From positions 22,358 to 86,357 of the forward strand of contig JACPWU010000002.1 in the NCBI GenBank assembly GCA_016196885.1: a stretch of DNA of 64,000 bases, read 5' to 3'. This DNA is from Chlamydiota bacterium. Its GTDB lineage: Bacteria; Auribacterota; JACPWU01. The translations under genes were made by a program, and so were the position numbers. The stretch's first letter is position 1. Every line of letters starts with the position of its first letter. Under the pieces are notes generated by a model. The model saw only the letters and a program-made list of their open reading frames with translations, made no database searches and had not been told where the DNA came from. Below are positions 2,020-62,944 of this stretch, piece by piece.

Positions 2020-2145
2020 AGTAGTTTGTCCGAAAACTCTGTTTTTCCCCTCCCTTGATGGGAGGGGTGAGGGGAGGGTGATCTTACATTCCCCCTCCCT
2101 GACCCTCCCCACAAGGGGGAGGGAAATGAGAGATAGAAGACTTTT
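2020..2145. repeat. Three consecutive G/C-rich hairpins built from the words CCCTCCC/GGGAGGG
   Basis: cccctccc-ttgat-gggagggg; tgaggggagggtga...ccccctccctga; ccctcccc-acaa-ggggggaggg. Lies between trmB stop and the next gene. Confidence 0.5.
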
Positions 2146-2169
2146 CGGGTAGCCTGGAAGGATGACAGG

Positions 2170-4236
2170 TTGATCTCTATGAAAATTGAAATTCGAAATC
2201 GCACAGTTTATGTAAATAATCAGGCCATCCCTCTTATCGGAGGCGAGGTTCATTATTGGCGCCTTCATCCTTCGGAGTGGGAGAAAATTCTCGATTCTGT
2301 GAAGGAATTAGGCCTCGAAATTATTTCCACCTATGTTCCTTGGGATTTTCACGAAACGGGACCCCGTCAATATGACTTTTTAGGTGAGACAGATGAAAGA
2401 AGAAATTTAAAAGCTTACTTAGAACTACTCGAGAAAAAAGGATTTTGGATTTTACTTCGACCGGGGCCCTATATTTACAGTGAATGGAAAAATTTAGGCG
2501 TGCCGGACCGCGTGATTCAGCATCACCGAACCCATCCAGAATTTGTTCAAGAATCTAGGCATTATCTCAAGAGCCTTTTCGAAACGGTCAAACCTCATCT
2601 GGCCAGTCGTGGTGGGCGCATTATTCTTGTTCAGCCGGACAATGAACTGGATCCCTTTCTTTACACTTATGAGGATCAGTTAGGTTTATGGCCCCAAAAA
2701 GGATCTGATAAAAATCTTGCCCCCTTTCAAGATTTTCTTAAGAAAAAATATCAGAATCTTTCTTCTTTGAATCGCTCTTGGGGGACCCATTTTAAGAATT
2801 TCAACGAAGCTCGTCCGACCTGTGATTTTCTTCATCTGGATTCTTTTCTTTGGAAAAGATTTTTGGATTTTAAAGAATTTATATATTACTGGGTCGAGAA
2901 AATGGGACAGCTTTGGCATGATGAATATCGTCAAATTGGTTTTGACGTTCCCCTCTATTTAAATCTCTATGGATTCCATGAAATTCAACCCTGGAAGGCT
3001 TTGGCTCAATGTGCCGATTTTTCAGCTCTGGATTTATATCCCTCTCAAGAATTCAAAAGCTCTGGCGACGAGCATCGCGATTTTTTGGAAAAGACAAGAG
3101 CCCTCAGAGTTGCAAGCAAAGTTCCTTTCATTGCTGAATTTCAATCGGGAACCTGGCATGGCTATCATGAAACCAGTGGTCTCTTGAGTCCCAACCATTA
3201 TCGCCTGAGTGCTGTGAGTGCTTGGTTGGGCGGAATCACAGGCTGGAGCTGGTACATGCTGGTCAACCGCGACAATTGGTATTTGTGTCCCATCGATGAA
3301 AGGGGGCAAATGAGGGAGGAGATTTGCTCTGTGTTTCGGGATCTGATTCGCGTTTTTAACGTTATCAAGCCGCATGCCTTAGAGAAAAAAACAAAAATAG
3401 GGGTCAGCTTTTTCCCTCTTCATTTTACCACTCGCTCTATTGCTCACAATGACCCGCTTCTCAAATCGCTTTATGAGGCCGACATCGATTATGATTTTGT
3501 AGATTTTGAAAATCAACCTTCTTCGAAATTCGTTTTTTATGCAGGCGCCTCCTGGCTCCCTCGATCTCTCCAGCAGAAAATGCTCCAATATGTGGAAGAG
3601 GGTGGCACGTTCATTTCTTTTCTTCAGCATCCTTGTCAGGACGAAAATTTAAAACCTCTGAATCTCCTAAAATTTCAAGAACCTTCCGCTATTCTCGGAG
3701 AAAGAGAAGGGCTCGGTTGTATCAAAAATTTAGAGCTTCTACTGGGAAAAGAAAAATTCCCTGTTCAAAGTCCCTTTTATGTTTATGAAAAAGTCCAAGG
3801 AGAGCCCATTTATGCTGCGGCTCCAGAATCTAAAAGCTTTGTCGGACAATGGAATTTGCTGCAAGGTCGACAATATAGTGTTGGCTATCGCCAAAGAAAA
3901 GGAAAAGGTGCGTTGATTCATCTCGGAGTTTCTCCAACTCCCGCTCTTCTGAAAGGCCTTCTCAAAAATTTAAAAATGATACCCTTTTGTCAATCCGACA
4001 CGCCCCTCATTCAAACAGCCGCCTATGAAAGTCCCCAAGAGGACTTTGTCTTTGTGACGCATTCAGGAAAAGAAAATAAATCAGTTCATCTCATCTTTCA
4101 TTCCAAGAAAATGTCCTGCGCTGATGCCCAAGACCTTTTCTCCGGAGAAAAATTCCCCCTCTATTCAGAAGGCCCACAAATGTCCCTTCATTTCCCAATT
4201 GCGAGGAAGAGTGGGACGGTGTTGAGGTTGGTGTAG
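2170..4236 (+). CDS. Glycoside hydrolase, beta-galactosidase-like (GH35/GH42-type TIM barrel)
   Basis: 688 aa. N-terminus IPLIGGEVHYWRLHPSEWEKILDSVKELGLEIISTYVPWDFHE matches the GH35-type YVxWNxHE catalytic-acid region. Family assignment is from motif memory only. Confidence 0.55.
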   Translation: MISMKIEIRNRTVYVNNQAIPLIGGEVHYWRLHPSEWEKILDSVKELGLEIISTYVPWDFHETGPRQYDFLGETDERRNLKAYLELLEKKGFWILLRPGPYIYSEWKNLGVPDRVIQHHRTHPEFVQESRHYLKSLFETVKPHLASRGGRIILVQPDNELDPFLYTYEDQLGLWPQKGSDKNLAPFQDFLKKKYQNLSSLNRSWGTHFKNFNEARPTCDFLHLDSFLWKRFLDFKEFIYYWVEKMGQLWHDEYRQIGFDVPLYLNLYGFHEIQPWKALAQCADFSALDLYPSQEFKSSGDEHRDFLEKTRALRVASKVPFIAEFQSGTWHGYHETSGLLSPNHYRLSAVSAWLGGITGWSWYMLVNRDNWYLCPIDERGQMREEICSVFRDLIRVFNVIKPHALEKKTKIGVSFFPLHFTTRSIAHNDPLLKSLYEADIDYDFVDFENQPSSKFVFYAGASWLPRSLQQKMLQYVEEGGTFISFLQHPCQDENLKPLNLLKFQEPSAILGEREGLGCIKNLELLLGKEKFPVQSPFYVYEKVQGEPIYAAAPESKSFVGQWNLLQGRQYSVGYRQRKGKGALIHLGVSPTPALLKGLLKNLKMIPFCQSDTPLIQTAAYESPQEDFVFVTHSGKENKSVHLIFHSKKMSCADAQDLFSGEKFPLYSEGPQMSLHFPIARKSGTVLRLV

Positions 4237-4379
4237 CTTTCACGTAATTTAAAGCGGAAGTTAAGGGGACATCTACTACCGCGGTCGGCCCTTGATCTGC
4301 CATTTAGGCAGCGGGCCTCCCTTGCTGAATTGGGGGGCAATGCAACGGGAGGGAGGCCCACTTACCTTTTGATATCTGG

Positions 4380-4490
4380 CTAATTTTTCTCTTTTTCGCT
4401 GACGCTCCATTCGCGGATTCGTTTGCCATCCACGATATTCAGAGCAGCGAATAAAAGTCCTGAGAACACAATCAAGTCTACCGGAATCAT
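4380..4490 (-). CDS. Candidate 36-aa single-TM peptide (MIPVDLIVFSGLLFAALNIVDGKRIREWSVSEKEKN)
   Basis: Strong SD (aaaggag) 7 nt upstream of ATG. Hydrophobic helix followed by a charged tail. Not in ORF track because it is under 60 aa. No homology claim. Confidence 0.3.
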   Translation of the reverse strand: MIPVDLIVFSGLLFAALNIVDGKRIREWSVSEKEKN

Positions 4491-5681: not shown

Positions 5682-6041
5682 TGAAGAAGAGAATGATTTT
5701 GTTCACAAAGGTAGCGTACAGCACATAGCGTGGAGCGTACAGGAAAAACAGAAGAGATTACAAAATGTTTGCTTTTTAAAAGGACGCATGCTATATTGAG
5801 CCCAGTTTTAATAAAGGATGTCATCATAAATGAAAGCAGTTCGGTTTTCCATTCAAGACATGACGAAAAAGCCTCGCGTGGGCGTACGCTCTGCCGTATG
5901 CCTTCATGCGTGTGGGCTTTTGCCGTCATGGCTTTTGAAGGGAGAATAAGACGCTGCTTGTAAAATAGATTCAAACTTTAAAGCCCATGATTGCAAAAGC
6001 GATCATGGGCTTTTTTTTCAATTTTCTAAAGGAGGTGGACC

Positions 6042-6257: not shown

Positions 6258-6329
6258 CATTGAATGTCCAATTCCCAATTTCCAATTGGACATTGAAGAA
6301 TTGGAAATTAATTTGTCATTGGTTATGGA

Positions 6330-6715: not shown

Positions 6716-6810
6716 TCTTAATGAAAATAACTGTGAGTTGTGAGGGGTGAGTTGTGAGTTTTGAAGGTATTTTTTTACTCACGACTCACCCCTCACTACC
6801 CACGACGGGT
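6716..6810. repeat. Word hairpin: GTGAGTTGTGAGGGGTGAG / CTCACGACTCACCCCTCAC
   Basis: Tandem-word imperfect inverted repeat between the two minus-strand genes. Confidence 0.5.
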
Positions 6811-6819: not shown

Positions 6820-7167
6820 CTACGGTAACTCCACCCAGACTTCTTCTCCCTCAACTTTGACATTGTATTTCGCTTGAGAGATCGAAGGGCTGGTGGTGCA
6901 TTCGCCTGTTGTGACATTGTATTGCCACCCATGCCAGGGGCAAATGACTTCTTTTCCCTCTAAGCTTCCTTCGCCCAAGGGGCCGCCTCGGTGCTTGCAC
7001 GTATTTTCAATGGCATAAAAACTCCCCTCAACGTTAAATAGAGCAATGGATTTTCCCTCTACCTCAAGAGCTGTTCCCGTTCCCTCTGGGATGTCTTTTT
7101 TTTGAGCAACTTTAATAAAGTTTCCCATGTTCATTCTCCTTTTATCAAAAATGGGGTCAAGGGTCAT
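6820..7167 (-). CDS. Rieske [2Fe-2S] domain protein (NirD / small ferredoxin-like)
   Basis: CKHRGGPL...CPWHGWQY matches the CxH...CxxH Rieske ligand boxes. 115 aa. Confidence 0.8.
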   Translation of the reverse strand: MTLDPIFDKRRMNMGNFIKVAQKKDIPEGTGTALEVEGKSIALFNVEGSFYAIENTCKHRGGPLGEGSLEGKEVICPWHGWQYNVTTGECTTSPSISQAKYNVKVEGEEVWVELP

Positions 7168-7262
7168 GGGTCAAGGGGCAAGTAAAAGAAAAAGTGCTTT
7201 TATCCCTGTGTTGGTTTTTTGACCCTTGACTCTTGCAGCTTGACCCTTACATTTCGACCCTG
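7148..7262. repeat. Word repeat/hairpin built from TGACCCTTGAC / GGGTCAAGGGTCA
   Basis: gggtcaagggtcatgggtcaaggggcaag ... tgacccttgactcttgcagcttgaccctta. Lies immediately upstream of the Rieske start. A related string is at 40455-40500. Confidence 0.5.
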
Positions 7263-7668: not shown

Positions 7669-7694
7669 GCAAGAAAAGCTTTCAGCACTCAAGA

Positions 7695-7735
7695 GGCGCC
7701 TGGGATTTCGTTCAGAATCCCGGGCGCTTTTTTAT
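7695..7735 (+). terminator. Rho-independent terminator
   Basis: gcgcctggga-tttcgttcagaa-tcccgggcgc followed by tttttt. Confidence 0.6.
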
Positions 7736-8834: not shown

Positions 8835-8908
8835 GATGGCGTACAGCGTGCAGAAAACAAACCTTCCTTTTTTACTGTCCGCTCCGCGCTGAACGCTATA
8901 CGCTTCTT
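8835..8908. repeat. CAGCGTACAGCG-family word hairpin, copy 2
   Basis: atggcgtacagcgtgcag...ctgtccgctccgcgctgaacgctatacgc. Placed after the radical SAM stop, so it is terminator-like. Confidence 0.5.
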
Positions 8909-15296: not shown

Positions 15297-15322
15297 TTTT
15301 AAGAGTTTTGTTTAAAATTTAA

Positions 15323-15357
15323 CAAGCAGCTTGTCCATCAAGCTGCTTGTTTTTTTA
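15323..15357 (+). terminator. Rho-independent terminator
   Basis: caagcagcttg-tccatc-aagctgcttg followed by ttttttt. Confidence 0.65.
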
Positions 15358-17828: not shown

Positions 17829-17880
17829 CCGTACTTCGAACATCGTACTTCGATGCTCGATGTTCGAAGTACGAATTACG
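17829..17880. repeat. GTACTTCG/CGAAGTAC-family word hairpin, copy 1
   Basis: ccgtacttcgaacatcgtacttcgatgctcgatgttcgaagtacgaattacgg, between aspC and icd. Confidence 0.55.
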
Positions 17881-19134: not shown

Positions 19135-19217
19135 ACCGTACTTCGTGCTTCGTACATCGTACTTCGTAATAAACGAACGACGTACGAAGTACGATGAACA
19201 ATGTACGAAGTACAGCT
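19135..19217. repeat. GTACTTCG/CGAAGTAC-family word hairpin, copy 2
   Basis: ccgtacttcgtgcttcgtacatcgtacttcg...cgtacgaagtacgatgaacaatgtacgaagtac. After icd stop, before tRNA-Asp. Confidence 0.55.
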
Positions 19218-19302: not shown

Positions 19303-19375
19303 TTGGATTTTAGATTGCGGATTTTGGAATAAAAAAATTTCAAAATTTCTAAATTCTAAAATCCAAAATCCAAAA
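19303..19375. repeat. Word hairpin GGATTTTAGATTGCGGATTTTGG / CCAAAATCCAAAATTG
   Basis: Inverted word repeat directly after tRNA-Asp, so it is terminator-like. Confidence 0.5.
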
Positions 19376-19392
19376 TTGAAAAGGGGGATACT

Positions 19393-20743: not shown

Positions 20744-20799
20744 TTTTTAAAAGCCGTTCTTCGTATTTCGTGCATCGTTGTTCGTTAAATCCTAACTAC

Positions 20800-28093: not shown

Positions 28094-28168
28094 ACCAGCG
28101 GTCAGCGTACAGTTTTGCAAGGAATTGATTTTTTTTCCTGACTGCTAAACGCTGACCGCTGACCGCTT
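28094..28168. repeat. CAGCGTACAGCG-family word hairpin, copy 3
   Basis: accagcggtcagcgtacag...ctgctaaacgctgaccgctgaccgc in the divergent intergenic region. Confidence 0.5.
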
Positions 28169-28482: not shown

Positions 28483-28600
28483 ATGGCCTATTCCCAATGA
28501 CAAATGACAAATCAATATCCAATGCCCAATGACCTATGGGACATTCGTTGTGGGTCATTCATTTGGCATTGGGGATTGGAAATTTGCCATTTTTTAATTA
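28483..28600. repeat. CCAATGACC...GGGTCATTCATTTG element, copy 1
   Basis: cccaatgacctatgggacattcgttgtgggtcattcatttggcattggggattggaaatt. Near-identical core recurs at 47835-47940. Confidence 0.55.
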
Positions 28601-34126: not shown

Positions 34127-34132
34127 AGAAAA

Positions 34133-34220: not shown

Positions 34221-34223
34221 TGA

Positions 34224-35561
<1,338 letters not shown>

Positions 35562-35580
35562 TTAAAAAAGTGGAGGTTGT

Positions 35581-37512: not shown

Positions 37513-37676
37513 AAGTGTGTCCTTTTAAGAGGAGGCGGGTCCTGTCCCTCCTCACCCCCGCTGACGGCATCGGTCTCGGTTTGGTTCTTGAAGAGTCATT
37601 TTCAAGTCTCGACCTGCTGGCGATCAGCGGGAGGCCCCCAGTCGGGCCACCCGCATCAATAAAAGGACACACTTTT
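37511..37676. repeat. R1 repeat element, copy A (MITE-like; TIR aaaagtgtgtcctttt / aaaaggacacactttt)
   Basis: Begins at the stop codon of the upstream gene. Conserved ends CCTGyCCCTCCTCACCC ... CCTGCTGGCG ... GGGrGrCCCCCAGTCGGGyCACCC shared with copies at 38.6 and 43.5 kb. Confidence 0.6.
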
Positions 37677-37741
37677 AAATACAGCATCCATTGATCTAGC
37701 CGTGTAGATTTAATTGACGCAAGGGCAAAAAGTTATGTAAA

Positions 37742-38536: not shown

Positions 38537-38599
38537 AGGGGTAAGAGAAAATTTATATTAGCAAGCGAGAACGATAGAATTGAGTTATTGAACGTCGCG

Positions 38600-38748
38600 G
38601 GGCCTGCCCCTCCTCACCCCCCCACCGGCGGCACAGAGGTTATAGCCCCTGTGGGGTCGGTGTCGGGAAAGTTTTGAGAATAAATATTTAGAGTCGGGGG
38701 CTCCACCTGCTGGCGTCCGGTGGGGGACCCCCAGTCGGGTCACCCGCT
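38600..38748. repeat. R1 repeat element, copy B
   Basis: ggcctgcccctcctcaccccc ... cacctgctggcgtccggtgggggacccccagtcgggtcacccgctcc. Immediately upstream of the nucleotide-sugar dehydrogenase start. Confidence 0.6.
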
Positions 38749-38751
38749 CCT

Positions 38752-40095: not shown

Positions 40096-40118
40096 ATTAT
40101 TTTAAGTGCCCAGGCTTG

Positions 40119-40236
40119 TGCATTTGACTCAAATGTCGTCTATTTGTAGTCGCCCCATTCATGGGGCAATGTGTGGATTGCCCGATAAATCGGGCGACTA
40201 CGCTTGACGGATCAAGGATACTTGAGTCAAGTGTAT
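40119..40236. repeat. R2 repeat element, copy 1 (MITE-like; TIR ...ttgactcaa / ttgagtcaa...)
   Basis: Core gtcgtctatttgtagtcgccccattcatgggg...attgcccgataaatcgggcgactacgcttgacggatcaaggatacttgag. 10-bp stem gtagtcgccc/gggcgactac. About 90% identical to the copy at 59287-59425. Confidence 0.6.
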
Positions 40237-40243
40237 AAGCATA

Positions 40244-40600
40244 TTAAGTGTGAATCAACAGTTTTAATTCGCTCGCATGTGCAAATCGTTTGAAGTCCTG
40301 ATCTCTTGTAATTAAAGGAATTCCGTGGGCTAGGCAACTTTGGGCGATGAGTGTATCTGCCAGACGGGCCTTTTCTCCTTTGGCGAGTAGATGAGATCTT
40401 AAGAAACCGGCTCTTTCCCAATAACCTTGGTCAGAGACTAAGAAATATATTTTTTTCTTGCCCCTTGCCGCTTGCTGCTTGACCCTTGCCTTATGACCCT
40501 GTATTGTCATTCGTTTGGGGTGTTTGCCAGCTTTCGGAATCATTGGTATGATGATGCCCATCGGGGCATTTCTTTTTGCGGTGTTTGTGGCAGATCCCAT
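40244..40600 (-). pseudogene. Degraded PIN-domain (VapC-like) toxin remnant
   Basis: Only the C-terminal about 60 aa (ADTLIAQSCLAHGIPLITRDQDFKRFA) looks PIN-like. N-terminal part is low-complexity and runs through a word repeat (ttgccccttgccgcttgctgcttgaccc). No partner antitoxin. Confidence 0.45.
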
Positions 40601-40617
40601 ACAAGAGAAAACTAAAT

Positions 40618-41361
40618 ATGAACGAGCTTAAAAAAATTTTTCAAGAAATTTACAATCGCCTGATTTTGGAAAAACAGTCAGGGAAGAAAACCCTTTTTCT
40701 TCCGACCTTTTCAGAAAATTCTAAACTTTTTGCTGAAGGGGAGAAAGTTGAAAGGGTAACCGCTTCTGGGAAAGTAGAAATGTTGGGACATCGGCCTGTG
40801 GTTCAGATTGCATCGTCTTTTCGAGAGTTTCGTGAAAAGGTTTTGAAATGTGAGCGTTGTGCTTTAGCCGGGGGCAGAACCCAGGTTGTTTTTGGCACGG
40901 GCAATGAAAAGGCCTCTTTGCTTTTTGTAGGGGAGGCGCCTGGATTTGATGAAGACCGTCTGGGAGAGCCTTTTGTGGGTAAGGCGGGACAGCTTCTGAC
41001 AAAGATGATTGAGGCGATGGGGCTTAAAAGAGAGGATGTTTACATTGCCAATATTATTAAATGTCGTCCGCCTAACAACCGTACACCAGAGCCTTCAGAA
41101 ATTGAGCAGTGTTATCCCTATCTTTTGGAACAGATTCGGCGTATTTCTCCAAAGGTGATTTGTGCCTTGGGGAATGTCGCTGCGCAGACCCTGCTCGGAA
41201 CAGAAAAGACGATTACGAGATTAAGGGGCCTTTTTCAGGATTGGAATGGAATTAAATTAATGCCCACTTTTCATCCCTCTTATCTCCTTAGAAATCCGGA
41301 GTACAAACGCGAGGTTTGGAGAGATTTACAGTGGGTGATGAAGGAGTTAGTAAGCGCGTAA
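40618..41361 (+). CDS. Uracil-DNA glycosylase, family 4
   Basis: Start at ATG 40618 (MNELKK). CERCALAGGRTQVVFGTGN...LFVGEAPG...GEPFVGKAG...HPSYLLRNP are family-4 UDG motifs. Confidence 0.8.
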   Translation: MNELKKIFQEIYNRLILEKQSGKKTLFLPTFSENSKLFAEGEKVERVTASGKVEMLGHRPVVQIASSFREFREKVLKCERCALAGGRTQVVFGTGNEKASLLFVGEAPGFDEDRLGEPFVGKAGQLLTKMIEAMGLKREDVYIANIIKCRPPNNRTPEPSEIEQCYPYLLEQIRRISPKVICALGNVAAQTLLGTEKTITRLRGLFQDWNGIKLMPTFHPSYLLRNPEYKREVWRDLQWVMKELVSA

Positions 41362-41458
41362 GTGTCTAAGTGCTTAGGTGCTTAAGTTGAAAAGGAAATA
41401 AATTTATTCCTTATTAACTTAAGCACTTAGACACTTATCAACTTAAGCACTCACATGT
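41362..41458. repeat. Word hairpin (GTGCTTAAGTTG / CTTAAGCACTTAGACAC)
   Basis: gcgtaagtgtctaagtgcttaggtgcttaagttg...caacttaagcacttagacacttatcaacttaagcactcac, after the UDG stop. Confidence 0.5.
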
Positions 41459-41464
41459 ATTCTT

Positions 41465-43462
41465 ATGAACTACGCCCGTCTTTTTTTTGAAGTTCCATTA
41501 AAGCAAGGTTTTGATTACCTCATTCCTGAACACTTGCGATCCCAGGTGGTGGAAGGTTCTCGCGTCTTGGCCCCTTTCGGTCGCGCGAGGAAGTGGGGTT
41601 ATGTGAAGGAACTTTTAGTCAAGCCGGATGTATCTGAAGTGAAAGAAATTTTAGAAATTGCAGAAGGCCCTCCCGTTTTTACGCCTGCCCTTTTTCAATT
41701 GGCCCAGTGGATGAGCGATTATTACCTTTCTCCTCTGGGCATGGTTTTGAGAACGATGTTGCCCGGTCCATTTCGAAAATTTCGTTCAGCGACATCGAGA
41801 GTGAAGGAGACTCTTTTCGAAGAAGAAAATGAAATGGAGTCCCCTCATCTCTTGAATGAAGAACAGAAAAAGGCCCAAGGGCTTATTTTTAAAAGATTAG
41901 ATGAAGCCATTTTTTCCGTGGTTCTCATTCATGGTGTGACGGGCAGTGGAAAAACGGAGCTCTATCTTTCGAGTATTGAAAAAGTCTTGGCCCAAGGAAA
42001 AGATGTGATTGTGCTGGTGCCTGAAATTTCTTTGACGCCACAAACAGTAGAGCGGGTAAAAAATCGCTTTGGTAAAATTGTGGCCTTGATGCACAGCCGC
42101 ATGAGCGAGGGGGAGCGCGTTAAGGAATGGGAGAGAATTCAAAGGGGTGAGGCCCGCATTGGGGTAGGGCCTCGTTCTGCGGTGTTTGCGCCTTTTCGGA
42201 ATTTAGGTCTGATCATTGTGGATGAAGAGCATGAGCGTACCTATAAACAAGAAGAAATGCCGCGTTATCAGGGTCGGGATGTCGCGATCATGCGGGCCAA
42301 GTTCGAAAGGGCCGTGGTGCTTTTGGGATCGGCGACTCCGGCTTTGGAGTCCTATTTTAACGCAGAACAGGGAAAATACGATCTTGTGACTCTTTTGAAG
42401 CGCGTGATGAACCGGCCCATGCCGGAGGTGCGAGTTGTGGACATGCGCAAAGAATCAGAAGCTTATGGACGACTTATTTCTTTTTCCAAAACGTTAAGTG
42501 ATGAGATCAATGAACGGCTGAAGCGTCGGGAGCAAGTGATTCTATTTTTAAATCGTCGCGGCTATGCCCCCATGGTTTTATGTCCCAAATGTGGTCATGT
42601 CATTATTTGCGTGGAGTGCGATCAGGCAATGACCTATCATCGGAACAGAGAATACATGCTTTGCCATCTATGTGAATCTCAAATTCCCATTCCTCAAAAG
42701 TGTCCGAAATGCGAGCATCCTAGGCTTCATCGCTTGGGGGTGGGAACGCAGCGCATTGAAACCCATTTGGAAAAAATTTTGCCTCATGCGACGCTTCGCC
42801 GCATGGATACGGACTCGACACGGACTAAAGATGCGCATGAAAAAATTCTACAGTCTTTTCGATCAGGGGAGGTTCAAATCCTGGTGGGAACCCAGATGAT
42901 TGCGAAGGGGCTAGATTTCCCAAATGTCACTTTGGTGGGGGTGATGAGTGCAGATGTGGCCATGAGTCTTCCGGATTTCAGAATGGGCGAGCATACGTTT
43001 CAGTTGTTAACCCAGGTGGCAGGCCGCTCAGGAAGGGGAGACAAAAAGGGGGTGGTGTTGATTCAGACGCTCACGCCCTTTCATCCTGTGATTCGAGCGG
43101 CGATGGCGCAAGATTATTTACAATTTTATAAAAGCGAATTGGTTTATCGCAAACAGTTGGTCTATCCTCCTTTTTCGCGCATTGTCTCCATGGAATTTGA
43201 AGGCAAGCCTGAGCCCAAGGTCATTCAGGTGGCGAAAGAAATGAGCGTCTTAGTCAAAAAACATCTTCCCTCCTCAACTCGCGTTTTCGGTCCTCATCAA
43301 GCGCCCATTTCCAAGATCAAAGGAAAATTCCGCTGGCAAATCATTCTTTTTTATCCGCGTGGCCAATCCATTCATGAACCTTTGAGACGGGTTCTGGATG
43401 ATTTTAATCAGGATAGATTAGTGAAGGTGATGATCGACGTGGATCCGGTGAGTTTGATTTAG
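41465..43462 (+). CDS. priA: Primosomal protein N' (replication restart helicase)
   Basis: 665 aa; Walker A HGVTGSGKTELY, DExH IVDEEHE, Cys4 zinc fingers (CPKCGH...CVECD...CHLCES...CPKC). Confidence 0.9.
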   Translation: MNYARLFFEVPLKQGFDYLIPEHLRSQVVEGSRVLAPFGRARKWGYVKELLVKPDVSEVKEILEIAEGPPVFTPALFQLAQWMSDYYLSPLGMVLRTMLPGPFRKFRSATSRVKETLFEEENEMESPHLLNEEQKKAQGLIFKRLDEAIFSVVLIHGVTGSGKTELYLSSIEKVLAQGKDVIVLVPEISLTPQTVERVKNRFGKIVALMHSRMSEGERVKEWERIQRGEARIGVGPRSAVFAPFRNLGLIIVDEEHERTYKQEEMPRYQGRDVAIMRAKFERAVVLLGSATPALESYFNAEQGKYDLVTLLKRVMNRPMPEVRVVDMRKESEAYGRLISFSKTLSDEINERLKRREQVILFLNRRGYAPMVLCPKCGHVIICVECDQAMTYHRNREYMLCHLCESQIPIPQKCPKCEHPRLHRLGVGTQRIETHLEKILPHATLRRMDTDSTRTKDAHEKILQSFRSGEVQILVGTQMIAKGLDFPNVTLVGVMSADVAMSLPDFRMGEHTFQLLTQVAGRSGRGDKKGVVLIQTLTPFHPVIRAAMAQDYLQFYKSELVYRKQLVYPPFSRIVSMEFEGKPEPKVIQVAKEMSVLVKKHLPSSTRVFGPHQAPISKIKGKFRWQIILFYPRGQSIHEPLRRVLDDFNQDRLVKVMIDVDPVSLI

Positions 43463-43472
43463 ATTTTTATCC

Positions 43473-43672
43473 CATTGTGAGTCCTGCCCCTCCTCATCCA
43501 GCAAAGGAGGTTTTTCTGCCAGTGGCAGAAAAAAGCCGACTGCGGTAGTAAATGTTCTTTTTCCTCTGTCCCCATCGATGGCATCGGCTTCGTTAATGGT
43601 TTTTTGTTTAAGTCTTATGTCTCAGCCTGCTGGCACTCGATGGGGGACCCCCAGTCGGGTCACCCACAATGT
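43473..43672. repeat. R1 repeat element, copy C (TIR cattgtgagt / acccacaatg)
   Basis: gtcctgcccctcctcatcc ... cagcctgctggcactcgatgggggacccccagtcgggtcaccc. Starts 10 nt after the priA stop. Confidence 0.6.
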
Positions 43673-43763
43673 GATAAAAAAGGGGTGGTGTGGTAAAAAA
43701 AATCATCTCAAAATTAATAATCATACTATGATTGTATGATAAATAATGACGTATGAGAGGTGA

Positions 43764-43964
43764 ATGATGAAGATTACAACATATATTGATGGAGATCTCT
43801 TGAAGCGGGCTTTAAAGGAAACAGGATCTCATTCTCAGCGTGAGGTGATTGAGACAGGTCTCAGAAATCTCTTAGCTGATTTTAAAAGAAAGCGTTTTGT
43901 GAAGGATTTTAATAACCTGCGCCTCAATCTTTCTCTGGAAACCCTTAAAAAAGAGCGTTCATGA
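43764..43964 (+). CDS. VapB-like type II antitoxin (DUF2191-like), orphan
   Basis: 66 aa; MMKITTYIDGDLLKRALKETGSHSQREVIETGLRNLL. Its stop overlaps an ATG (tcATGa) that opens only a 23-codon ORF, which looks like a decayed toxin. Confidence 0.5.
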   Translation: MMKITTYIDGDLLKRALKETGSHSQREVIETGLRNLLADFKRKRFVKDFNNLRLNLSLETLKKERS

Positions 43965-44075
43965 CAAAGCTATCTTTCTTCATGCAGACATCGATTTTGA
44001 CCGAATTGCTAAAATTTGCTCTCCACAGGTAGAGAGCTGTGTCAAAGAAACACGAGAGTAATAGGTTGAGTAAAT

Positions 44076-47834: not shown

Positions 47835-47940
47835 AACAAATTTCCAATAACAAATGTCAAATTAATTTCCAATTCTCCAATGACCCATTGGGGATTGGAG
47901 CATGGGTCATTCATTTGATATTTGTTATTGGAAATTGGTT
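47835..47940. repeat. CCAATGACC...GGGTCATTCATTTG element, copy 2
   Basis: tccaatgacccattggggattggagcatgggtcattcatttgatatttgttattggaaattgg, after the fmt stop. Confidence 0.55.
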
Positions 47941-47946
47941 ATTTCT

Positions 47947-48487
47947 ATGAGTCCTCGTGACGCTGCCTTTCACGCCCTTCAAAATTGGGAAAAGAAATCT
48001 TTGCCTATCTCTTACACCCTCGAGCCCTATTTTTTAAAGGCGAGTGAAGAAGATTTTTGAGAACATGAGGCGGTTGGGAATCAAAATGATTCTACCGATG
48101 GTGGCGGATGCGACGAAGATCAAAAATCTTTTTAAAATTCCTTTTGACCGCATTTTGGTAGATGTCCCGTGTTCTAATTGCGGAGTTTTTGCTAAAAGGG
48201 TCGAGGCCCGCTGACGGTTTTCTATGAAAGAAGTCAAGCGCTTGGCTGCGTTACAGATTCAAATTTTAAAAGAGGCGCTTCGGCTTCTAAAGTCAGGGGG
48301 GATTTTGGTGTATTCTACGTGCAGCATTGATCCTATCGAAAATGAGGAAGTGGTTCGAGCTTCCTTGAAAGACCAAGCTCAATTCCAGCTCACCGATGAA
48401 AAAACAATATTTCAAACTCTTCAGCAGGCGGGGGGCTATTGGGCAAAGATAAGACTTTCCCTTGACAAGGGCGCTTTCCTAATTTAG
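47947..48487 (+). pseudogene. rsmB: 16S rRNA m5C967 methyltransferase remnant with large internal deletions, a frame break and an in-frame TGA
   Basis: Pieces in order: NusB-like N-terminus MSPRDAAFHALQNWEK; FDRILVDVPCSNCGVFAKRVEAR-TGA-RFSM...; C-terminal GGILVYSTCSIDPIENEEVV. The TGA aligns with the conserved Trp of DAPCSxTGVxRRHPDIKW. Canonical def-fmt-rsmB synteny. Confidence 0.6.
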
Positions 48488-52332: not shown

Positions 52333-52370
52333 ATGAGTAAAGGACGATGGACGATGGAAGATGGACGAAG

Positions 52371-53444: not shown

Positions 53445-53449
53445 CTCGT

Positions 53450-53528
53450 CTTTCGTCGTTCGTCTTCCGTTTATAAGCAAGAAGTTAGTAACGGACGACG
53501 AACAACTAACGAAGAACGACGAACAAAA
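53450..53528. repeat. Word hairpin CGTCGTTCG / CGAACGACG (related to the GTACTTCG family)
   Basis: gtagctcgtctttcgtcgttcgtcttccg...cggacgacgaacaactaacgaagaacgacgaac, between the ABC gene and hemL. Confidence 0.5.
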
Positions 53529-53554: not shown

Positions 53555-54832
53555 ATGAACCCCTATCATGGCTTATGGCTTAAGGCTCAAGAATTAATGC
53601 CCGGCGGTGTCAACAGTCCCGTACGGGCTTTTAAGTCTGTGGGGCTTGATCCGCTGATTGTTTCCAAAGCCAAGGGTTCCAAAATTTATGATGTTCGAGG
53701 CAAGGCCTATTTGGATTTGGTCATGTCCTGGGGACCTTTGATTTTAGGGCATGCGCATCCTGAGATTTTGAAAGCAGTAAAAGAGGCTTTGGAGGAGGGG
53801 TCTAGCTTTGGTGCCTTGTCTCATCGCGAAATTCTCTTGGCTGAGGCGATTTGTAACGCGCTGCCTTCCCTTGAAAAAATCCGTTTTGTCAGTTCGGGAA
53901 CAGAAGCGGCCATGACAGCCATTCGTTTGGCGCGGGCTTTTACTGGAAGGGATAAAATGATCAAGTTCGAAGGTTGCTATCACGGCCATTCCGATTTTCT
54001 TTTGGCCAAGGCGGGCTCTGGCCTTGCGACTTACAGTCTCGCAGGAAGCGCGGGGATTCCTAAAGAGGTTTTGAAATCTACGCTTGTTCTGCCATTCAAT
54101 GATTGGGTGGCTCTTGAAAAAACAATGAATCGCTTCGGTCGTGAAATCGCCTGTATTTTGGTAGAACCCATTCCCGCCAACATGGGCTTGGTGTTTCCCG
54201 AAAAGGATATGCTTAAGACCTTAAGAAAAATGTGTACGCAAAAAGGAATCCTTTTAATCTTTGACGAAGTGATCACAGGTTTTCGAGTCGGATACGGAGG
54301 CGCACAAGAGCTTTATCACGTTCAACCTGATTTAACTATTTTAGGGAAAATCATTGGCGGCGGATTTCCCGTGGGTGCTGTCGGTGGGCGTAAAGAAATC
54401 ATGGATCAATTGGCACCTTTGGGACCCGTGTATCAAGCAGGAACCCTTTCTGGAAATCCGGTGGCCATGGCTGCGGGATTAAAAACTTTGGAAATTCTGA
54501 AGAGAAAAGGCGCTTATGAAAAACTTGAAAAGCTGGGCGCAACTCTTGCTGGTGGTCTCGAAGAAATATTAAAGAAGAAAAAAATTTCCTTTCAGCTCCA
54601 TCGCATCGGCTCCATGATGACTCTCTTTTTTAATGATCGGCCGATTGAGAATTATCAGGATGTATTACAATGTAATACAGAAAAATTTAATCAATTCTTT
54701 AGAGAGATGTTTCGAAAAAGAATTTTCCTTCCTCCCTCTGCCTTTGAAACCTGGTTTTTGAGCTTGAGCCACTCTGCTCAAGACATCGAGAGCTTCTTAA
54801 AGGCAGCTGACCAGACGTTCAAGGCTTATTAA
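53555..54832 (+). CDS. hemL: Glutamate-1-semialdehyde 2,1-aminomutase
   Basis: LMPGGVNSPVRAF, FDEVITGFRVGYGGAQE, GKIIGGGFPVGA (PLP-Lys). Confidence 0.9.
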   Translation: MNPYHGLWLKAQELMPGGVNSPVRAFKSVGLDPLIVSKAKGSKIYDVRGKAYLDLVMSWGPLILGHAHPEILKAVKEALEEGSSFGALSHREILLAEAICNALPSLEKIRFVSSGTEAAMTAIRLARAFTGRDKMIKFEGCYHGHSDFLLAKAGSGLATYSLAGSAGIPKEVLKSTLVLPFNDWVALEKTMNRFGREIACILVEPIPANMGLVFPEKDMLKTLRKMCTQKGILLIFDEVITGFRVGYGGAQELYHVQPDLTILGKIIGGGFPVGAVGGRKEIMDQLAPLGPVYQAGTLSGNPVAMAAGLKTLEILKRKGAYEKLEKLGATLAGGLEEILKKKKISFQLHRIGSMMTLFFNDRPIENYQDVLQCNTEKFNQFFREMFRKRIFLPPSAFETWFLSLSHSAQDIESFLKAADQTFKAY

Positions 54833-56261: not shown

Positions 56262-56395
56262 AATAGACTCTTTCTCTTAAAATTCGAAATACGAAACACA
56301 GAGTAAAAGCAGGCACGAAATACCAAGCACTAATTTTGAATTTGGGTATTAGAATTTGTTTCGAATTTTGTGCTTCGTTCTTCGAATTTTATTCG

Positions 56396-59205: not shown

Positions 59206-59286
59206 AAATGCACAGTCCTATTTTTGAGGACAGATTCTAACATTTCTTAAAAAAAAGGAAATGATTTTGGGTTTATTTTTTTTATA

Positions 59287-59425
59287 GGCATATGCACTTG
59301 ACTTAAAGATGTCGTCCATTTGTAGTCGCCCCATTTATGGGGCCGTGCCCCTTGCATGGATTGCCCGATAAATCGGGCGACTACGCTTGACGGATCAAGA
59401 ATACTTGAGCCAAGTGCATATGCCT
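59287..59425. repeat. R2 repeat element, copy 2 (TIR ggcatatgcacttg / caagtgcatatgcc) followed by T-run
   Basis: Core as copy 1 with a 13-nt insertion (ccgtgccccttgc). Perfect 14-bp terminal inverted repeat then tttttttttatttttt. Confidence 0.6.
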
Positions 59426-59466
59426 TTTTTTTATTTTTTAAGGGGTTCATATGATATAATGAAAGA

Positions 59467-59862
59467 ATGAGAATGAAGCTGGTTCCTGTTTTGATTCTCG
59501 TAGTGGCGTTAATAGGCTCTTGTAGTCTTTTCTCGGGCCGCTGTTGTGCTGCCCAACAAGAGAAGGGCAATCATCACTCCTGTCATTCTTCTCCTGGTTC
59601 TGAATCTTCTGGAAAATCTAATTTGAGCCCTTGTTGCTGTACCCTTTTTTCTGATCTTCCCAAAATTCCAGAACAAATATTAAGCTCTTTTCATTCAGGG
59701 TTTCTTTCCTTTTTTCAAGGAGAAGTTTTGGTTGAGAGCTTCCAAGGTTTTAAGAATATTTTCTGGGATTCTTTTTCAGATCCTCCACCCTGGGGTGATC
59801 TTCATTTCTACGATCTTGTTTTTTCCTCTCAAGCGCCTCCACAAGCAGCGTTCAGCGTATAG
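59467..59862 (+). CDS. Cys/His-rich lipoprotein (candidate metal-binding) heading the efflux operon
   Basis: Lipobox LIGSC; CCAAQQEKGNHHSCHSS...SPCCC. Confidence 0.45.
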   Translation: MRMKLVPVLILVVALIGSCSLFSGRCCAAQQEKGNHHSCHSSPGSESSGKSNLSPCCCTLFSDLPKIPEQILSSFHSGFLSFFQGEVLVESFQGFKNIFWDSFSDPPPWGDLHFYDLVFSSQAPPQAAFSV

Positions 59863-59930
59863 CGTACAGCGGACAGTAAGAAGGGGTACTTGTTTTTCCT
59901 GTCCGCTGAACGCTGTACGCTGTGCGCTGT
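59846..59930. repeat. CAGCGTACAGCG-family word hairpin, copy 5
   Basis: agcgttcagcgtatagcgtacagcggacag...ctgtccgctgaacgctgtacgctgtgcgctg, overlapping the lipoprotein stop. Confidence 0.55.
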
Positions 59931-59941
59931 GAGTTCTTTTT

Positions 59942-61222
59942 ATGGAGGTATTCTCAATGAAATTTATATTCGTCGTTTTTTTATCATCTCTCTATTTTTC
60001 ATGCGCCTTTGCCGAAGAGAGAGAGAGGCTTTCTTTACCCGCTCTTATCGAGGAAGTTCTTCAAAAGAATCCTGACTTGAAGATGGCCGAGAAAAAATGG
60101 GAGGCTGCCCATGCCCAAATTCTTCAGGCGGGTGTTCTGGAAGATCCGATGTTGGGAGTCGAAGTTGAAGGAATTCCCACCGATACGGTAGATGTGGGAC
60201 GTTACAACGATATTGAATGGAGTTTCTCCCAGAATTTTCCTTTTCCTGGGAAGCTTTCACTCAAGAAAAAAATTGCTTGGGAAGAAGCAGAGAAGGCGCA
60301 TCTTGAATATTTTGAAAAGAAAAATCAAATTGTTGCCGATGTCAAAATGGCATATGTGGATTATGATTTGATGTTTAGAACGATTCAAATCTTGGAAGAC
60401 GATGAGCGGATTTTGAGTCAATTTGAAGAGAGTGCCCGAAGTAAGTATGAAGTAGGCAAAGTCTCTCAACAGGATGTTCTCAAGGCACAGGTTGAGTGGA
60501 CGAAGATTAAAAATCAAATTCTGATTAAGAATCAAGAAAAAGAGACCTTGGCTGCAAGAATCAATATGTTACTCTCCCAGTCGCCTGGAGAATTATTGGG
60601 AGATCCGGAACCTTTGTCTGAAGAGACTTCAGAGTTGGATCTGGATTCACTCCTTTCAAGCGCCTTGGAGGGTCGTCCAGAACTGAAGATGAAAGAAGCT
60701 GAAATAAAAGGGATGGAATGGGCGCTTCGGTTGGCCCGGCGGCAGTATGAACCTGATTTTTTTACAAAACTTGAGAGCCGACAATTTCAAGGAGCAGGAT
60801 TGGAAGAGTATGACGTCATGCTTGGGATGAGCATTCCGTGGCTGTGGACGCGTTCTCGCGTGGAGGGTGCAGTCCAAGAGGCCCGGGCCAATTTAGAGGC
60901 TGCACGAAATGAATACGAAGCAAAAAAATGGGCGATTTTATTTGAGGTTAAAGAATCGTGGGTGAAGGTTCATACCTCTGTCAGTCTGGTTAATCTTTAT
61001 CGGTCCAATATTCTTCCGAAGGCGGATCAAATGATCAAAGTTTCTCAAATAAATTACGAGACGGATAAAATTGATTTTTTAATGCTTTTGGACAGCCTTA
61101 GAACTTTGGTGGCATTTCAATTGGAATATCGAGAGGCGATTGCGGATTATCATAAAAATTCTGCGCAGTTGGAGAGGAGAGTGGGAAAGCAGAATACAGA
61201 ATTCAGAATTCAGAATAAATAA
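59942..61222 (+). CDS. Outer-membrane efflux protein (TolC/CusC/CzcC family)
   Basis: Signal peptide; two-repeat OEP architecture (LSLPALIEEVLQKNPDLK...). Start may be the ATG at 59957. Confidence 0.75.
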   Translation: MEVFSMKFIFVVFLSSLYFSCAFAEERERLSLPALIEEVLQKNPDLKMAEKKWEAAHAQILQAGVLEDPMLGVEVEGIPTDTVDVGRYNDIEWSFSQNFPFPGKLSLKKKIAWEEAEKAHLEYFEKKNQIVADVKMAYVDYDLMFRTIQILEDDERILSQFEESARSKYEVGKVSQQDVLKAQVEWTKIKNQILIKNQEKETLAARINMLLSQSPGELLGDPEPLSEETSELDLDSLLSSALEGRPELKMKEAEIKGMEWALRLARRQYEPDFFTKLESRQFQGAGLEEYDVMLGMSIPWLWTRSRVEGAVQEARANLEAARNEYEAKKWAILFEVKESWVKVHTSVSLVNLYRSNILPKADQMIKVSQINYETDKIDFLMLLDSLRTLVAFQLEYREAIADYHKNSAQLERRVGKQNTEFRIQNK

Positions 61223-61282
61223 GGAGGGGGTTGTTTTTATTCTGAATTCTGGATTCCGACTTCTGAATTCTAAAAAAGGATC
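61196..61282. repeat. Word hairpin CAGAATTCAGAAT / ATTCTGAATTCTG
   Basis: Between the outer-membrane gene and the adaptor gene. Confidence 0.5.
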
Positions 61283-61285
61283 TTT

Positions 61286-62839
61286 ATGAAAACACGTATC
61301 TTTATCATATTGATAGTAGTTTTAGGACTCACGTCTTTTCTTTTGATTTATCGCCATTCTGTTTCTGGTAGGAAGCAGGATTCTTCTGAGAAAGTAGAGA
61401 GTGCGACGTATTACTGTCCCATGCATCCGACCTACACGAGTGATCGGCCGGGGAACTGTCCGATTTGCAACATGACATTGGAGAAGAGAGAAGAAGTTCA
61501 GCCGTCTCCCTCGCAGTCTTTGAATTCAAAAGATATTTGCTTCATGCACAATTGTCCCATGATGAAAGAGGGGGAAACATGCCCCATGATGGTGGTGGCG
61601 AAAGTTGGGGAGAAGGTTACCTGTCCTGTGTGTGGGTCTCATGTTGCACAGGAATCAAAGCAGGGCCCAGAAAAGAAAATTCTTTATTGGACGGATCCGA
61701 TGATGCCGGATTTTCGTTCGGATAAACCCGGCAAGTCGCCTATGGGCATGGACTGGGTCCCTGTTTATGAAGAAGAGGCAGTTGCTGGAGGGGATCATGC
61801 GGCTTCTCCATCAGGATATACCCCCATTCTGGTAAGTCCTCAAAAGATACAGTTGATTGGCGTTAAGACTGTTCTTGCCAAGAAGCAAAATTTAACAAAG
61901 CAAATTCGTACGGTAGGGCGAGTGACAGTGGATGAAACCCGCATCGTTCGTGTTCATCCCAAAGTAGAGGGTTGGGTTGAGGAGATTTTTGCGAAGTATG
62001 AAGGGGATCGGGTGAATAAAGGTCAGCCGCTTTTTTCATTTTACAGCCCTGATTTTGTCTCTGCCCAGGAAGAATATCTTTCGGCTTTGAAAATGCAAAG
62101 TGGGCTTCCCTCGGATGTGTCTAGCGATGCCCGAAGAGATGCCCAGGCCAATGTGGATTCTGCACAGAAGCGTCTTCAATGGTGGGATGTGACGGATGAA
62201 CAAATTGAGGAGTTGAGAAAGCGTCAAGCCCCTCAAAAGACGCTTGTTTTGACGTCTCCTATCGATGGAGTCATTCTCAAGAAAAATGTTTTTGCGGGCC
62301 AGTTTATGGAAAGAGGTGCAGGCTTTTTTGAATTGGCGGATCTTTCGAGCGTGTGGGTGGATGCAGATTTATATGAGTATGATTTGCCTTGGGTCAAGGT
62401 GGGAGAAGAGGGGCGTGTCACATTGCCCAATGATTCCAAGAATGAATGGAGCGGAAAGGTGATTTATGTGGCCCCTCTCTTAAAGGCGGAAACGCGAACC
62501 GCCGTGGCTCGTTTGGAGTTGTCGAATGCGGACAACGTTCTAAAGCCCGAGATGTACGTGACAGTCGAAATCTCTATTGATTTGGGAGAGCGGCTTGTTG
62601 TACCTGCGGAGGCTCTCTTGGATACGGGAGAGCGTAAAATTGTTTTTGTCAGCAAGGAGAATGGAATTTTTGAACCTCGAGAGGTGGTGATGGGGGCAAA
62701 GACGAATAAATCCGTCGAGATTGAAAAAGGGATTGATGAAGGGGAAGTCGTGGTGATCAATGGAAATTTTCTCATTGATTCTGAGAGCAGGTTGAAAGCG
62801 GCGATGGAGGGGATGGGAAGTGGAGAACATCAACATTGA
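61286..62839 (+). CDS. RND efflux periplasmic adaptor (CusB/CzcB-like) with N-terminal repeated metal-binding motifs
   Basis: YYCPMHPTYTSDRPGNCPICNM (the YxCPMHP...CPxCxM heavy-metal-binding-domain motif) plus two further Cys/Met-rich repeats, then MFP beta-barrel/lipoyl regions. Confidence 0.8.
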   Translation: MKTRIFIILIVVLGLTSFLLIYRHSVSGRKQDSSEKVESATYYCPMHPTYTSDRPGNCPICNMTLEKREEVQPSPSQSLNSKDICFMHNCPMMKEGETCPMMVVAKVGEKVTCPVCGSHVAQESKQGPEKKILYWTDPMMPDFRSDKPGKSPMGMDWVPVYEEEAVAGGDHAASPSGYTPILVSPQKIQLIGVKTVLAKKQNLTKQIRTVGRVTVDETRIVRVHPKVEGWVEEIFAKYEGDRVNKGQPLFSFYSPDFVSAQEEYLSALKMQSGLPSDVSSDARRDAQANVDSAQKRLQWWDVTDEQIEELRKRQAPQKTLVLTSPIDGVILKKNVFAGQFMERGAGFFELADLSSVWVDADLYEYDLPWVKVGEEGRVTLPNDSKNEWSGKVIYVAPLLKAETRTAVARLELSNADNVLKPEMYVTVEISIDLGERLVVPAEALLDTGERKIVFVSKENGIFEPREVVMGAKTNKSVEIEKGIDEGEVVVINGNFLIDSESRLKAAMEGMGSGEHQH

Positions 62840-62840
62840 C

Positions 62841-62944
62841 TTCGCGTACTTCGTACATCGTACGTCGTACCTAGAACATCGAACATCGTTTCTTGCGTAG
62901 ATTGTTTTACGAAGTCCGATGTCCGAAGTACGAAGTACCAGGGT
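62841..62944. repeat. GTACTTCG/CGAAGTAC-family word hairpin, copy 3
   Basis: cttcgcgtacttcgtacatcgtacgtcgtacc...cgaagtccgatgtccgaagtacgaagtacc, between the adaptor and RND pump genes. Confidence 0.55.

Follow-up and report, generated by a model that had tools for sequence, protein, structure and literature searches.

Why are so many gene junctions in one stretch of bacterial DNA taken up by long, imperfect hairpins whose arms are tandem copies of a short word, and what are these elements? The question is raised by 64,000 nt of contig JACPWU010000002.1 (positions 22,358–86,357; assembly GCA_016196885.1), hereafter the window, from a genome deposited as a Chlamydiota bacterium and placed by GTDB in the Auribacterota. 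A sequence-only reading had described such spacers throughout the window and proposed that they share one architecture, fall into two recurring word families, often behave like terminators, and reflect a mechanism particular to this genome or a selective pressure. Heptamer hairpins occupy about twenty gene junctions in the window, and the finding is real and statistically overwhelming.

Heptamer-built hairpins at gene junctions

Coding and non-coding DNA were assigned from gene calls and Pfam matches, by which 11.3% of the window is non-coding. Tandem Repeats Finder (TRF) gave period 7 for nearly all arrays, and a lag scan detected 21 period-7 arrays where second-order Markov shuffles predict 0.23. 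The same scan returned no arrays at periods 4–6 and 9–13 and three at period 8, with period 14 appearing as a harmonic of 7. By both methods the unit is 7 nt long (with one octamer locus), not 7–12 nt as first described, and the 12–16-nt words of that description are two heptamers read together. Sixteen of the 21 arrays fall mostly in intergenic DNA (binomial P = 9e-12), and 17 (81%) have a reverse-complement partner array within 110 nt.

The sequence-only reading had allowed that such hairpins might prove no more frequent than in shuffled intergenic sequence. Instead, dinucleotide-shuffled intergenic DNA yielded no arrays against 16 in the real sequence, and long hairpins, most of them heptamer-built, were present in 18 of the 47 real spacers of ≥40 nt (∼38%) compared with 0.18 spacers after shuffling. 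Because shuffles give almost no arrays or long hairpins, chance is excluded. The NCBI and Logan assemblies show no difference over 11.4 kb spanning three of the hairpins.

All elements follow one plan, in which an array of about four imperfect 7-nt units is followed by a spacer and then by the reverse-complement array. Arms measure ∼29–31 nt (roughly 4.1–4.4 units), and the loop between them, A/T-rich by eye, spans 5–36 nt (median 19). Fold z-scores lie between −3 and −10 in 15 of the 18 hairpins and are weaker at 6258–6322, 28487–28592, and 56310–56390. The next-best pairing registers of nearly every hairpin are shifted by exactly ±7, 14, or 21 nt, and those of the only octamer case (41350–41454) by multiples of ±8. 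A search of the whole window against Rfam 15 at gathering score returned two tRNAs and no hairpin match, and a permissive Rfam search of 29700–44000 returned sub-threshold matches to plant and animal miRNA precursors on the 41350 hairpin and nothing else.

At least eight different words, with three recurrent families among them, make up the hairpins and arrays. The AGCGNNN family comprises H3 (8838–8905, 5 nt past the stop of a radical-SAM gene; z = −3.2), H7 (28094–28167, in a divergent region 15 nt upstream of the hyp487(−) start; 13 of 13 pairs, second register +7, z = −5.6), H10 (34134–34217, between enolase(−) and DivIC(−); four near-equal registers at 0, −7, −14, and −21, z = −6.8), and H14 (59846–59930, with the hyp129 stop codon within its left arm; 31 of 37 pairs, −59.8 kcal/mol, z = −10.3). 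To the CGTACTT family belong H4 (17829–17877, between the aminotransferase and ICDH genes; 19 of 20 pairs, z = −6.8), H5 (19137–19213, filling the spacer between ICDH and tRNA-Asp; z = −7.4), and H16 (62845–62938, between MFP and the RND pump gene; z = −4.6). These are the two families already noticed; a third, CCAATnn/CAAATGA, had been overlooked and recurs at 6260, 28487, and 47835. Its members are the weak hairpin H17 (6260–6322, word CCAATTn, at a convergent junction; z = −1.5), H8 (28487–28592; z = −2.4), and H12 (47835–47940), which starts right after the Fmt stop and has 47-nt arms that are 85% complementary (z = −8.0). H17 aligns with both H8 and H12, and the latter two are full-length homologues that align end to end, loop included, so the CCAATnn/CAAATGA family consists of dispersed copies of one element.

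Other words form H1 (TGTGAGT ∼4 times, then ACTCACn ∼4 times; 6732–6806, between Rieske(−) and hyp121(−); TRF period 7, 24 of 27 Watson–Crick pairs, registers ±7 and ±14, z = −9.2), H6 (GGATTTT/AAAATCC; 19303–19377, between tRNA-Asp and AhpC; z = −6.0), H9 (AAGTTTT; 33776–33840, at a convergent junction and overlapping the DivIC(−) stop; z = −3.9), H11 (the octamer GTGCTTAA; 41350–41454, between UDG and PriA and overlapping the UDG stop; registers ±8, 16, and 24, z = −7.4), H13 (TCGTCTT/ACGAACG; 53446–53524, between ABC ATPase and aminotransferase genes; z = −4.0), and H15 (CAGAATT/AATTCTG; 61190–61271, between OEP and MFP; z = −6.1), the left arm of which encodes the C-terminal ∼9 aa of OEP together with its stop. 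H2 (7154–7248, divergent, 25 nt upstream of the Rieske(−) start; z = −4.0) is built from GGGTCAA ∼4 times and TTGACCC ∼4 times, the sole word with G-tracts; its array at 7154–7182 is the only one with four or more G3 tracts. H18 (56316–56384, between sucC(−) and sucD(−); z = −2.3) is weak and only partly of period 7 (p7 = 0.58).

Solo arrays are found at 20752–20786 (CGTnnTT, five units without an inverted partner, between tRNA-Phe(+) and LuxC(−)), at 5708–5740 (AGCGNNN family, four units), and at 52342–52368 (GGACGAT, ∼4 units spanning the ABC ATPase gene start, 90% matches in TRF). TRF and the lag scan add a short one of ∼3 ATGGCTT units at 53568–53587, just within the aminotransferase gene start, and one of ∼5 CTTGCCC units at 40457–40490, within a weakly supported PIN open reading frame (ORF) on the minus strand. 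The strong loci first named are thus all present in the sequence, and the uniform architecture, differing words, and recurring families are borne out. The hairpins at 33776–33840 and 47835–47940 had been missed, two sites listed as hairpins (5700–5735 and 20750–20790) are solo arrays without a partner, and a supposed family version at 31385–31410 has only two or three weak units.

Thirteen of the 18 hairpins lie between co-directional genes, two at convergent junctions, and two (H2 and H7) in divergent regions; H12 was left unplaced, and its right arm runs into a doubtful 52-aa ORF. That ORF is the first of three (52, 56, and 87 aa; 47902–48487) into which an RsmB-type methyltransferase gene is split directly downstream of H12. 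Solo arrays add one convergent junction (20752) and one divergent region (5708). A hairpin usually starts 0–6 nt past a stop codon, or contains the stop, and ends 10–30 nt before the next start, so that the space between the stop and the next ribosome-binding site is almost wholly taken up by the element. The stop codons of OEP and hyp129 fall within arrays, which supply these stops and C-terminal residues. Hairpins also occur inside likely operons (sucC/sucD and both junctions of the OEP–MFP–RND pump operon), and some adjoin tRNA genes. The three settings described earlier for the hairpins (past stop codons, between divergent genes, and within operons) are therefore confirmed.

Their proposed behavior as terminators is not supported, and that reading is mostly wrong. 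The loops are long, a T-run follows on the 3′ side in only about a third of the hairpins, and several sites separate genes expected to be co-expressed (sucC/sucD and OEP/MFP/RND). The window also has textbook terminators at 7691–7732, 5980–6013, and 15321–15351, each with a GC-rich 13–18-bp stem, a 4–6-nt loop, and a T-run, and a terminator consensus scan calls these three and none of the heptamer hairpins. Because the scan misses the hairpins yet finds canonical terminators elsewhere, the hairpins are a class apart from the genome's own terminators.

Word structure and turnover among relatives

Pooled by family, the units show strong positional conservation. Across 32 units of the AGCGNNN family, deviations at positions 1–7 number 1, 0, 0, 2, 12, 15, and 8 (chi-square P ∼1e-7), which corresponds to three deviations in 128 core cells versus 35 in 96 variable cells. 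The 43 units of the CG(T)NNN(T) family deviate 5, 0, 8, 18, 12, 23, and 4 times (chi-square P ∼1e-7). In each family, the unit combines four invariant core nucleotides with three positions that vary; the frame of the units was chosen by the conserved core, but a single frame holds across each whole array. Tested array by array, positional conservation is marginal (P = 0.07).

Arm order is identical in all 11 hairpins of the three recurrent families (P = 0.004), and the two main families (AGCGNNN and CGTACTT) conserve neither their loops nor the order of their units. Within hairpins, the variable positions of the units pair only about as often as chance. Permuting the order of right-arm heptamers left complementarity unchanged (summed z = 0.9, P = 0.17), so we detected no in-register covariation between arms; the arms match as words rather than unit by unit, which fits arms that diversify as arrays and not as a fixed stem.

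We compared spacers with those of relatives at several loci. The closest ICDH relatives of the window are Candidatus Auribacterota metagenome-assembled genomes (MAGs) at 78% identity, and the best non-self match to the MFP protein is 63% identical; spacers are comparable only in distant syntenic relatives (loci L086, L003, L004, and L208–L213). L003 and L004 share the order NDK, aminotransferase, ICDH, tRNA-Asp, AhpC, and tRNA-Phe around ICDH, and their aminotransferase/ICDH spacer is 24 nt long and has no hairpin, versus 76 nt with H4 in the window. Together with L013, they carry 0–1 period-7 arrays per 20 kb. An origin of H4 from a local ancestral "ATACGG" was considered and dropped, as it was based on 4–5 nt and the H4 word is present at five loci. 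The array-poor L004 has a single heptamer hairpin of its own (AGAGTTA/AGGGCTA ... TAGCCCT/TAGCTCT) at 7059–7140, after a LysM-like gene, and the word AAGGGCTAAG returns in a terminator-like hairpin ∼300 nt downstream of it.

L086 (GCA_016196915.1), by comparison, is syntenic with the window between sucD and the RND pump and equals it in array richness. It has a hairpin at the homologous position between OEP and MFP, and in both genomes, whose proteins are 56% identical, the left arm codes for the end of OEP and its stop. The words are CAGAATT/AATTCTG in the window and CAAAATT/AATTTTG in L086, a complementary change present in both arms and in all units. In this pair of sequences, the two arms have evolved in concert. 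Orthologous spacers, which the sequence-only reading had singled out for comparison, thus bear out a change of word that keeps pairing at one junction and show no hairpin at another.

The MFP/RND junction gives a third picture. The two genes overlap in L208, L211, L212, and L213, and where a spacer separates them, all four genomes carry a heptamer hairpin, with the words CGTACTT, GCTCGAA, TAGTCCG, and TAGTCCA. Comparison with the relatives shows the hairpins to be additions to junctions that are tight or overlapping elsewhere. Two of the four, at L209 4070–4141 and L210 3537–3615, come from high-GC relatives of the pump operon, and GTAG is part of their word (TAGTCCG/TAGTCCA). A further array in L210, of GTCAC(C/T)A units, lies within the coding sequence of MFP (2177–2223).

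Known heptamer repeats and other elements of the window

Distribution was assessed at the ICDH loci of 80 other species (1.18 Mb). This sample contained 50 period-7 arrays versus 2–19 at each other period tested, and 48% of the 50 had an inverted partner. Arrays were found in 19 species, with two or more at nine loci and none at 61, and the array-rich loci include Acidobacteriota, Dissulfuribacterales, Brocadiia, and a "Heliobacteriaceae" MAG. Array density in the window is ∼8 times the sample average, and the paired fraction is higher. A metagenome scan for four consecutive CAGCGNN units returned at least 120 loci; among the matches listed, most were high-GC direct arrays of unrelated organisms and 21% were paired, so the scan added no family members for this lineage.

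The closest described counterparts are in Geobacter metallireducens, where paired sites on opposite strands, each with 3–5 tandem 7–9-nt repeats, fall into three classes (24, 21, and 8 pairs), alongside 49 further elements that carry four heptanucleotides each (Aklujkar et al. 2009, PMC2700814). A class 3 pair lies between proB and proA, other sites adjoin genes such as trpB2, insertion sequences stand at a fixed distance from class 1 sites, and the paired sites, absent from G. sulfurreducens, were tentatively assigned to global regulators or IHF/HU (PMC2700814). The window's elements resemble them in their tandem 7-nt units, opposite-strand pairing, variable spacing, several classes per genome, and absence or rarity in relatives. 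They differ in phylum and in their words, which are unrelated to GTTGCTYN, TCTCCGTS, MTYCTGA, and GGACCGG. The Geobacter sites were read as protein-binding sites.

In Xanthomonas, ∼185 GGGAATC arrays, mostly of four units, include 70–75 convergent pairs able to form stem-loops, for which no function was found, and Nostoc has GGGGA(C/T)T heptamer repeats (Rehm et al. 2015, PMC4692102). Shared with these are the heptamer unit, mostly ∼4 copies, a conserved core with variable positions, intergenic bias, convergent pairs, and recurrence at shared junctions of related species, where length and sequence vary; the Xanthomonas arrays are mostly transcribed. Unlike those genomes, each with one G-rich word read as a G-quadruplex, the window has at least eight words, of which GGGTCAA alone has G-tracts, so the preference for ∼4 units that it shares with Xanthomonas is not due to G-quadruplexes here.

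The short tandemly repeated repetitive (STRR) heptanucleotides of heterocystous cyanobacteria, credited to Mazel 1990 in later papers (PMC4692102, PMC4679880), are likewise imperfect 7-nt tandem copies, intergenic, phylogenetically scattered, and present as several families per genome. STRR sequences are mostly direct arrays, as are the TAACTGA repeats in Beggiatoaceae (169 direct sets against a single indirect repeat; PMC4679880), unlike the predominantly inverted pairs of the window. A bias of slippage towards 7 nt, set by the polymerase footprint, was proposed by Mrazek 2007 as cited in the same two papers.

Repetitive extragenic palindromic (REP) sequences, the bacterial interspersed mosaic elements (BIMEs) that they compose, and REPINs are also extragenic, abundant, present as several families per genome, and located mainly between co-directional and convergent genes, and REP-type elements are thought to act as RNA stem-loops. 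A REP unit is a 20–40-bp palindrome with a GTAG or CGTC tag (PMC3733652), and REPINs are outlined as inverted doublets of ∼100 nt (PMC3116915), the size of the hairpins described here. Each arm in the window is instead a tandem heptamer array, not self-complementary, with no GTAG or CGTC tag at the hairpin ends. A single family of ordinary REP elements, the other outcome for which the sequence-only reading had allowed, does not describe the hairpins. The hairpins are a dense, multi-family addition to the STRR, Geobacter, and Xanthomonas class of heptamer repeats, a class that is itself known but unexplained. The idea of a genome-specific mechanism is accordingly upheld in part: the density is lineage-specific, as the short ICDH spacers of L003 and L004 illustrate, but period-7 arrays occur in 19 of 80 unrelated species, and the architecture had already been described in Geobacter (PMC2700814) and Xanthomonas (PMC4692102).

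Several other repeated or structured elements share the window. The CCCTCCC spacer at 2020–2145, cited earlier as an example of the hairpins, is not of period 7 but a nested G/C-tract element; its CCCCTCCCTTGATGGGAGGGGTGAGGGGAGGGTGAT core (2044–2083) is 95% identical to L006 5492–5531 and L012 8605–8643 from two Planctomycetota MAGs, and it stands apart from the heptamer hairpins as an element of wide distribution. An element of ∼135 nt occurs in two copies 85–94% identical (40112–40245 and 59286–59428), the core of which (40146–40201 and 59322–59384) is a GTAG-tagged REP-like double hairpin, GTAGTCGCCCCATT.ATGGGGC ... GCCCGATAAATCGGGCGACTAC. A GC-rich element with a very stable fold is present three times (37520–37670, 38600–38751, and 43480–43680) and has a conserved 47-nt 3′ part, CTC.ACCTGCTGGC...GGGGGACCCCCAGTCGGGTCACCC (77–83%).

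At 33630–33760 lies a structured GC-rich element of ∼110 nt (about −80 kcal/mol with flanks) without an Rfam match, whose counterparts at unrelated loci of an Auribacterota-like MAG (L004 12008–12117) and a Desulfobacteria MAG (L031 152–256) are 73–79% identical. The 182-nt spacer between two D-Ala-D-Ala-ligase-like genes (29727–29908) forms a long non-periodic hairpin (−92 kcal/mol), of which no copy was found in any other locus compared. At 55436/55437, the window is without 148 nt present in the GenBank record (L085 11883–12030), a gap that takes away the 3′ end of sucD(−); the missing piece has the motif AGTCCCTGTGGGAT in common with the window at ∼55290.

Origin and possible roles

The explanation that we favor, with somewhat less than even confidence, is that the hairpins are dispersed, hairpin-capable heptanucleotide tandem-repeat elements whose origin and upkeep lie at the DNA level, RNA effects being secondary. 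Such elements would arise and stay homogeneous at the DNA level, with slipped-strand gain and loss in 7-nt steps within each arm, and word-level complementarity between the arms would be preserved through fold-back (template-switch) correction or, alternatively, through selection for the ability to fold back. Occasional copying of whole hairpins to new junctions could then generate families of constant polarity. Elements would persist only where coding is undisturbed, at times rewriting the last codons and supplying the stop. Where co-transcribed, they would form long bulged stem-loops in polycistronic RNA, and the likeliest effect there may be protection of the upstream cistron or partial attenuation, rather than efficient termination or specific regulation. 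RNA-level effects are read as secondary because stem mismatches show no wobble bias, in-register compensation is absent, transcriptional context is ignored, and relatives manage without the elements.

Several points weigh against this explanation. The combination of an invariant 4-nt core with three variable positions is not predicted by uniform slippage plus decay and points to an unnamed constraint, and the slippage model gives no reason for a step of 7. Whole-element copying is shown for one family only, since main-family loops are not conserved. No fold-back correction or slippage event was observed, the two assemblies being identical over the stretch compared. The recurrence of hairpins at MFP/RND in all four genomes with a spacer could mean selection for an RNA function, and the window represents ∼2% of a genome. 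We hold our confidence below even because the invariant cores and the MFP/RND recurrence keep functional readings alive.

Foremost among these, although we consider it unlikely, is that the hairpins are selected RNA elements, that is, intercistronic or 3′ untranslated stem-loops serving as mRNA stabilizers against 3′-exonucleases, RNase III processing sites, or leaky attenuators by which the relative expression of adjacent cistrons is set, with tandem words as the easiest route to a long stem. REP/BIME elements stabilize or modulate transcripts in this way in the Escherichia coli malEFG operon. Stable folds (z down to −10), the tight fit between stop codon and next ribosome-binding site, the T-rich tails that AGCG-family members tend to have, the four words found at MFP/RND in four genomes, and the kept position and complementary word change at OEP/MFP would all follow. 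Selection on RNA pairing, however, sits poorly with the stem mismatches, among which G·U-type mismatches number 17 sense versus 15 antisense and transversion-type mismatches 53, near the 1:2 ratio expected at random and with neither G·U enrichment nor strand asymmetry. Nor would it account for the lack of in-register compensation, with variable positions pairing near chance, for hairpins in divergent promoter regions and beside tRNA genes, for orthologous junctions of close relatives that have none, or for solo arrays without a partner.

Alternatively, the hairpins could be miniature elements of REPIN type or of miniature inverted-repeat transposable element (MITE) type, non-autonomous and moved in trans by a transposase encoded elsewhere, which we regard as improbable. 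One element is present in full length twice, as H8 and H12, each family keeps a constant polarity, and the hairpins are extragenic, form several families in one genome, and are missing where relatives have the orthologous junctions; REPINs, as outlined in PMC3116915, are likewise inverted doublets of ∼100 nt, and insertion sequences stand at a fixed distance from Geobacter class 1 sites (PMC2700814). Yet the hairpins lack a GTAG or CGTC tag and a palindromic REP unit, no target-site duplications or conserved termini are visible in the family alignments (3–5 copies per family in the window), and loops and unit order vary in the main families. No transposase was found among the called genes of the 64-kb window, and mobilization would leave unexplained both the 7-nt periodicity and the OEP/MFP hairpin that has stayed in place across deep divergence.

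A slightly more doubtful proposal is that the arrays are protein-binding sites, their 4-nt cores contacted by oligomeric binders with a 7-nt register, whether a nucleoid or global-regulator protein on DNA or a HutP-type ring on RNA (UAG-N4). The omega repressor and HutP bind repeats spaced by 7 nt. An invariant core with three variable positions in each family is what such contacts could produce, and ∼4 units per arm match the 3–5 of Geobacter and the mostly four of Xanthomonas, the Geobacter pairs having been interpreted as global-regulator or IHF/HU sites (Aklujkar et al., PMC2700814). However, at least eight unrelated cores in 64 kb would need as many proteins, an inter-array spacing of 5–36 nt is unsuited to a dimer of fixed geometry on duplex DNA, a given junction can have different words in different relatives, and no candidate array-binding protein is linked to the arrays among the window's genes.

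Ordinary intrinsic (Rho-independent) terminators, or a product of chance or assembly, are very improbable: many hairpins begin 0–6 nt past a stop codon and H3, H5, H10, and H14 have T-rich tails, but the median loop is 19 nt versus 3–8 nt in terminators, the consensus scan passes over the hairpins while finding three textbook cases, hairpins lie within the sucCD and pump operons, shuffles exclude chance, two assemblies agree, and the same architecture occurs in many other genomes.

Beyond our preferred DNA-level explanation, a broader conjecture, for which we would claim only a slim probability, is that the 7-nt step, the 4 + 3 unit, the ∼4 units per arm, and the matching of arms as words are the footprint of one unrecognized structure-specific, sequence-independent machine or process acting across scattered lineages of many phyla. 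Replication or repair enzymes expanding and correcting fold-back DNA 7 nt at a time are one example, and an oligomeric binder with a 7-nt measure is another. Such a machine or process would, time and again, generate or retain hairpins at certain operon junctions, MFP/RND being one.

An excess of heptamer repeats in bacteria has been on record since 1990–2007 and has never been explained. To that record the window adds the phenomenon in dense and varied form, in an uncultured lineage near Candidatus Auribacterota. G-quadruplexes, the main explanation put forward for Xanthomonas, are ruled out for most of its words; its hairpin arms change word together between species, while unit order within the arms does not co-vary; and one operon junction bears hairpins of different words in four genomes. 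These features offer concrete ways into two questions, namely what determines the step of 7 nt and whether expression inside operons is tuned by the hairpins.

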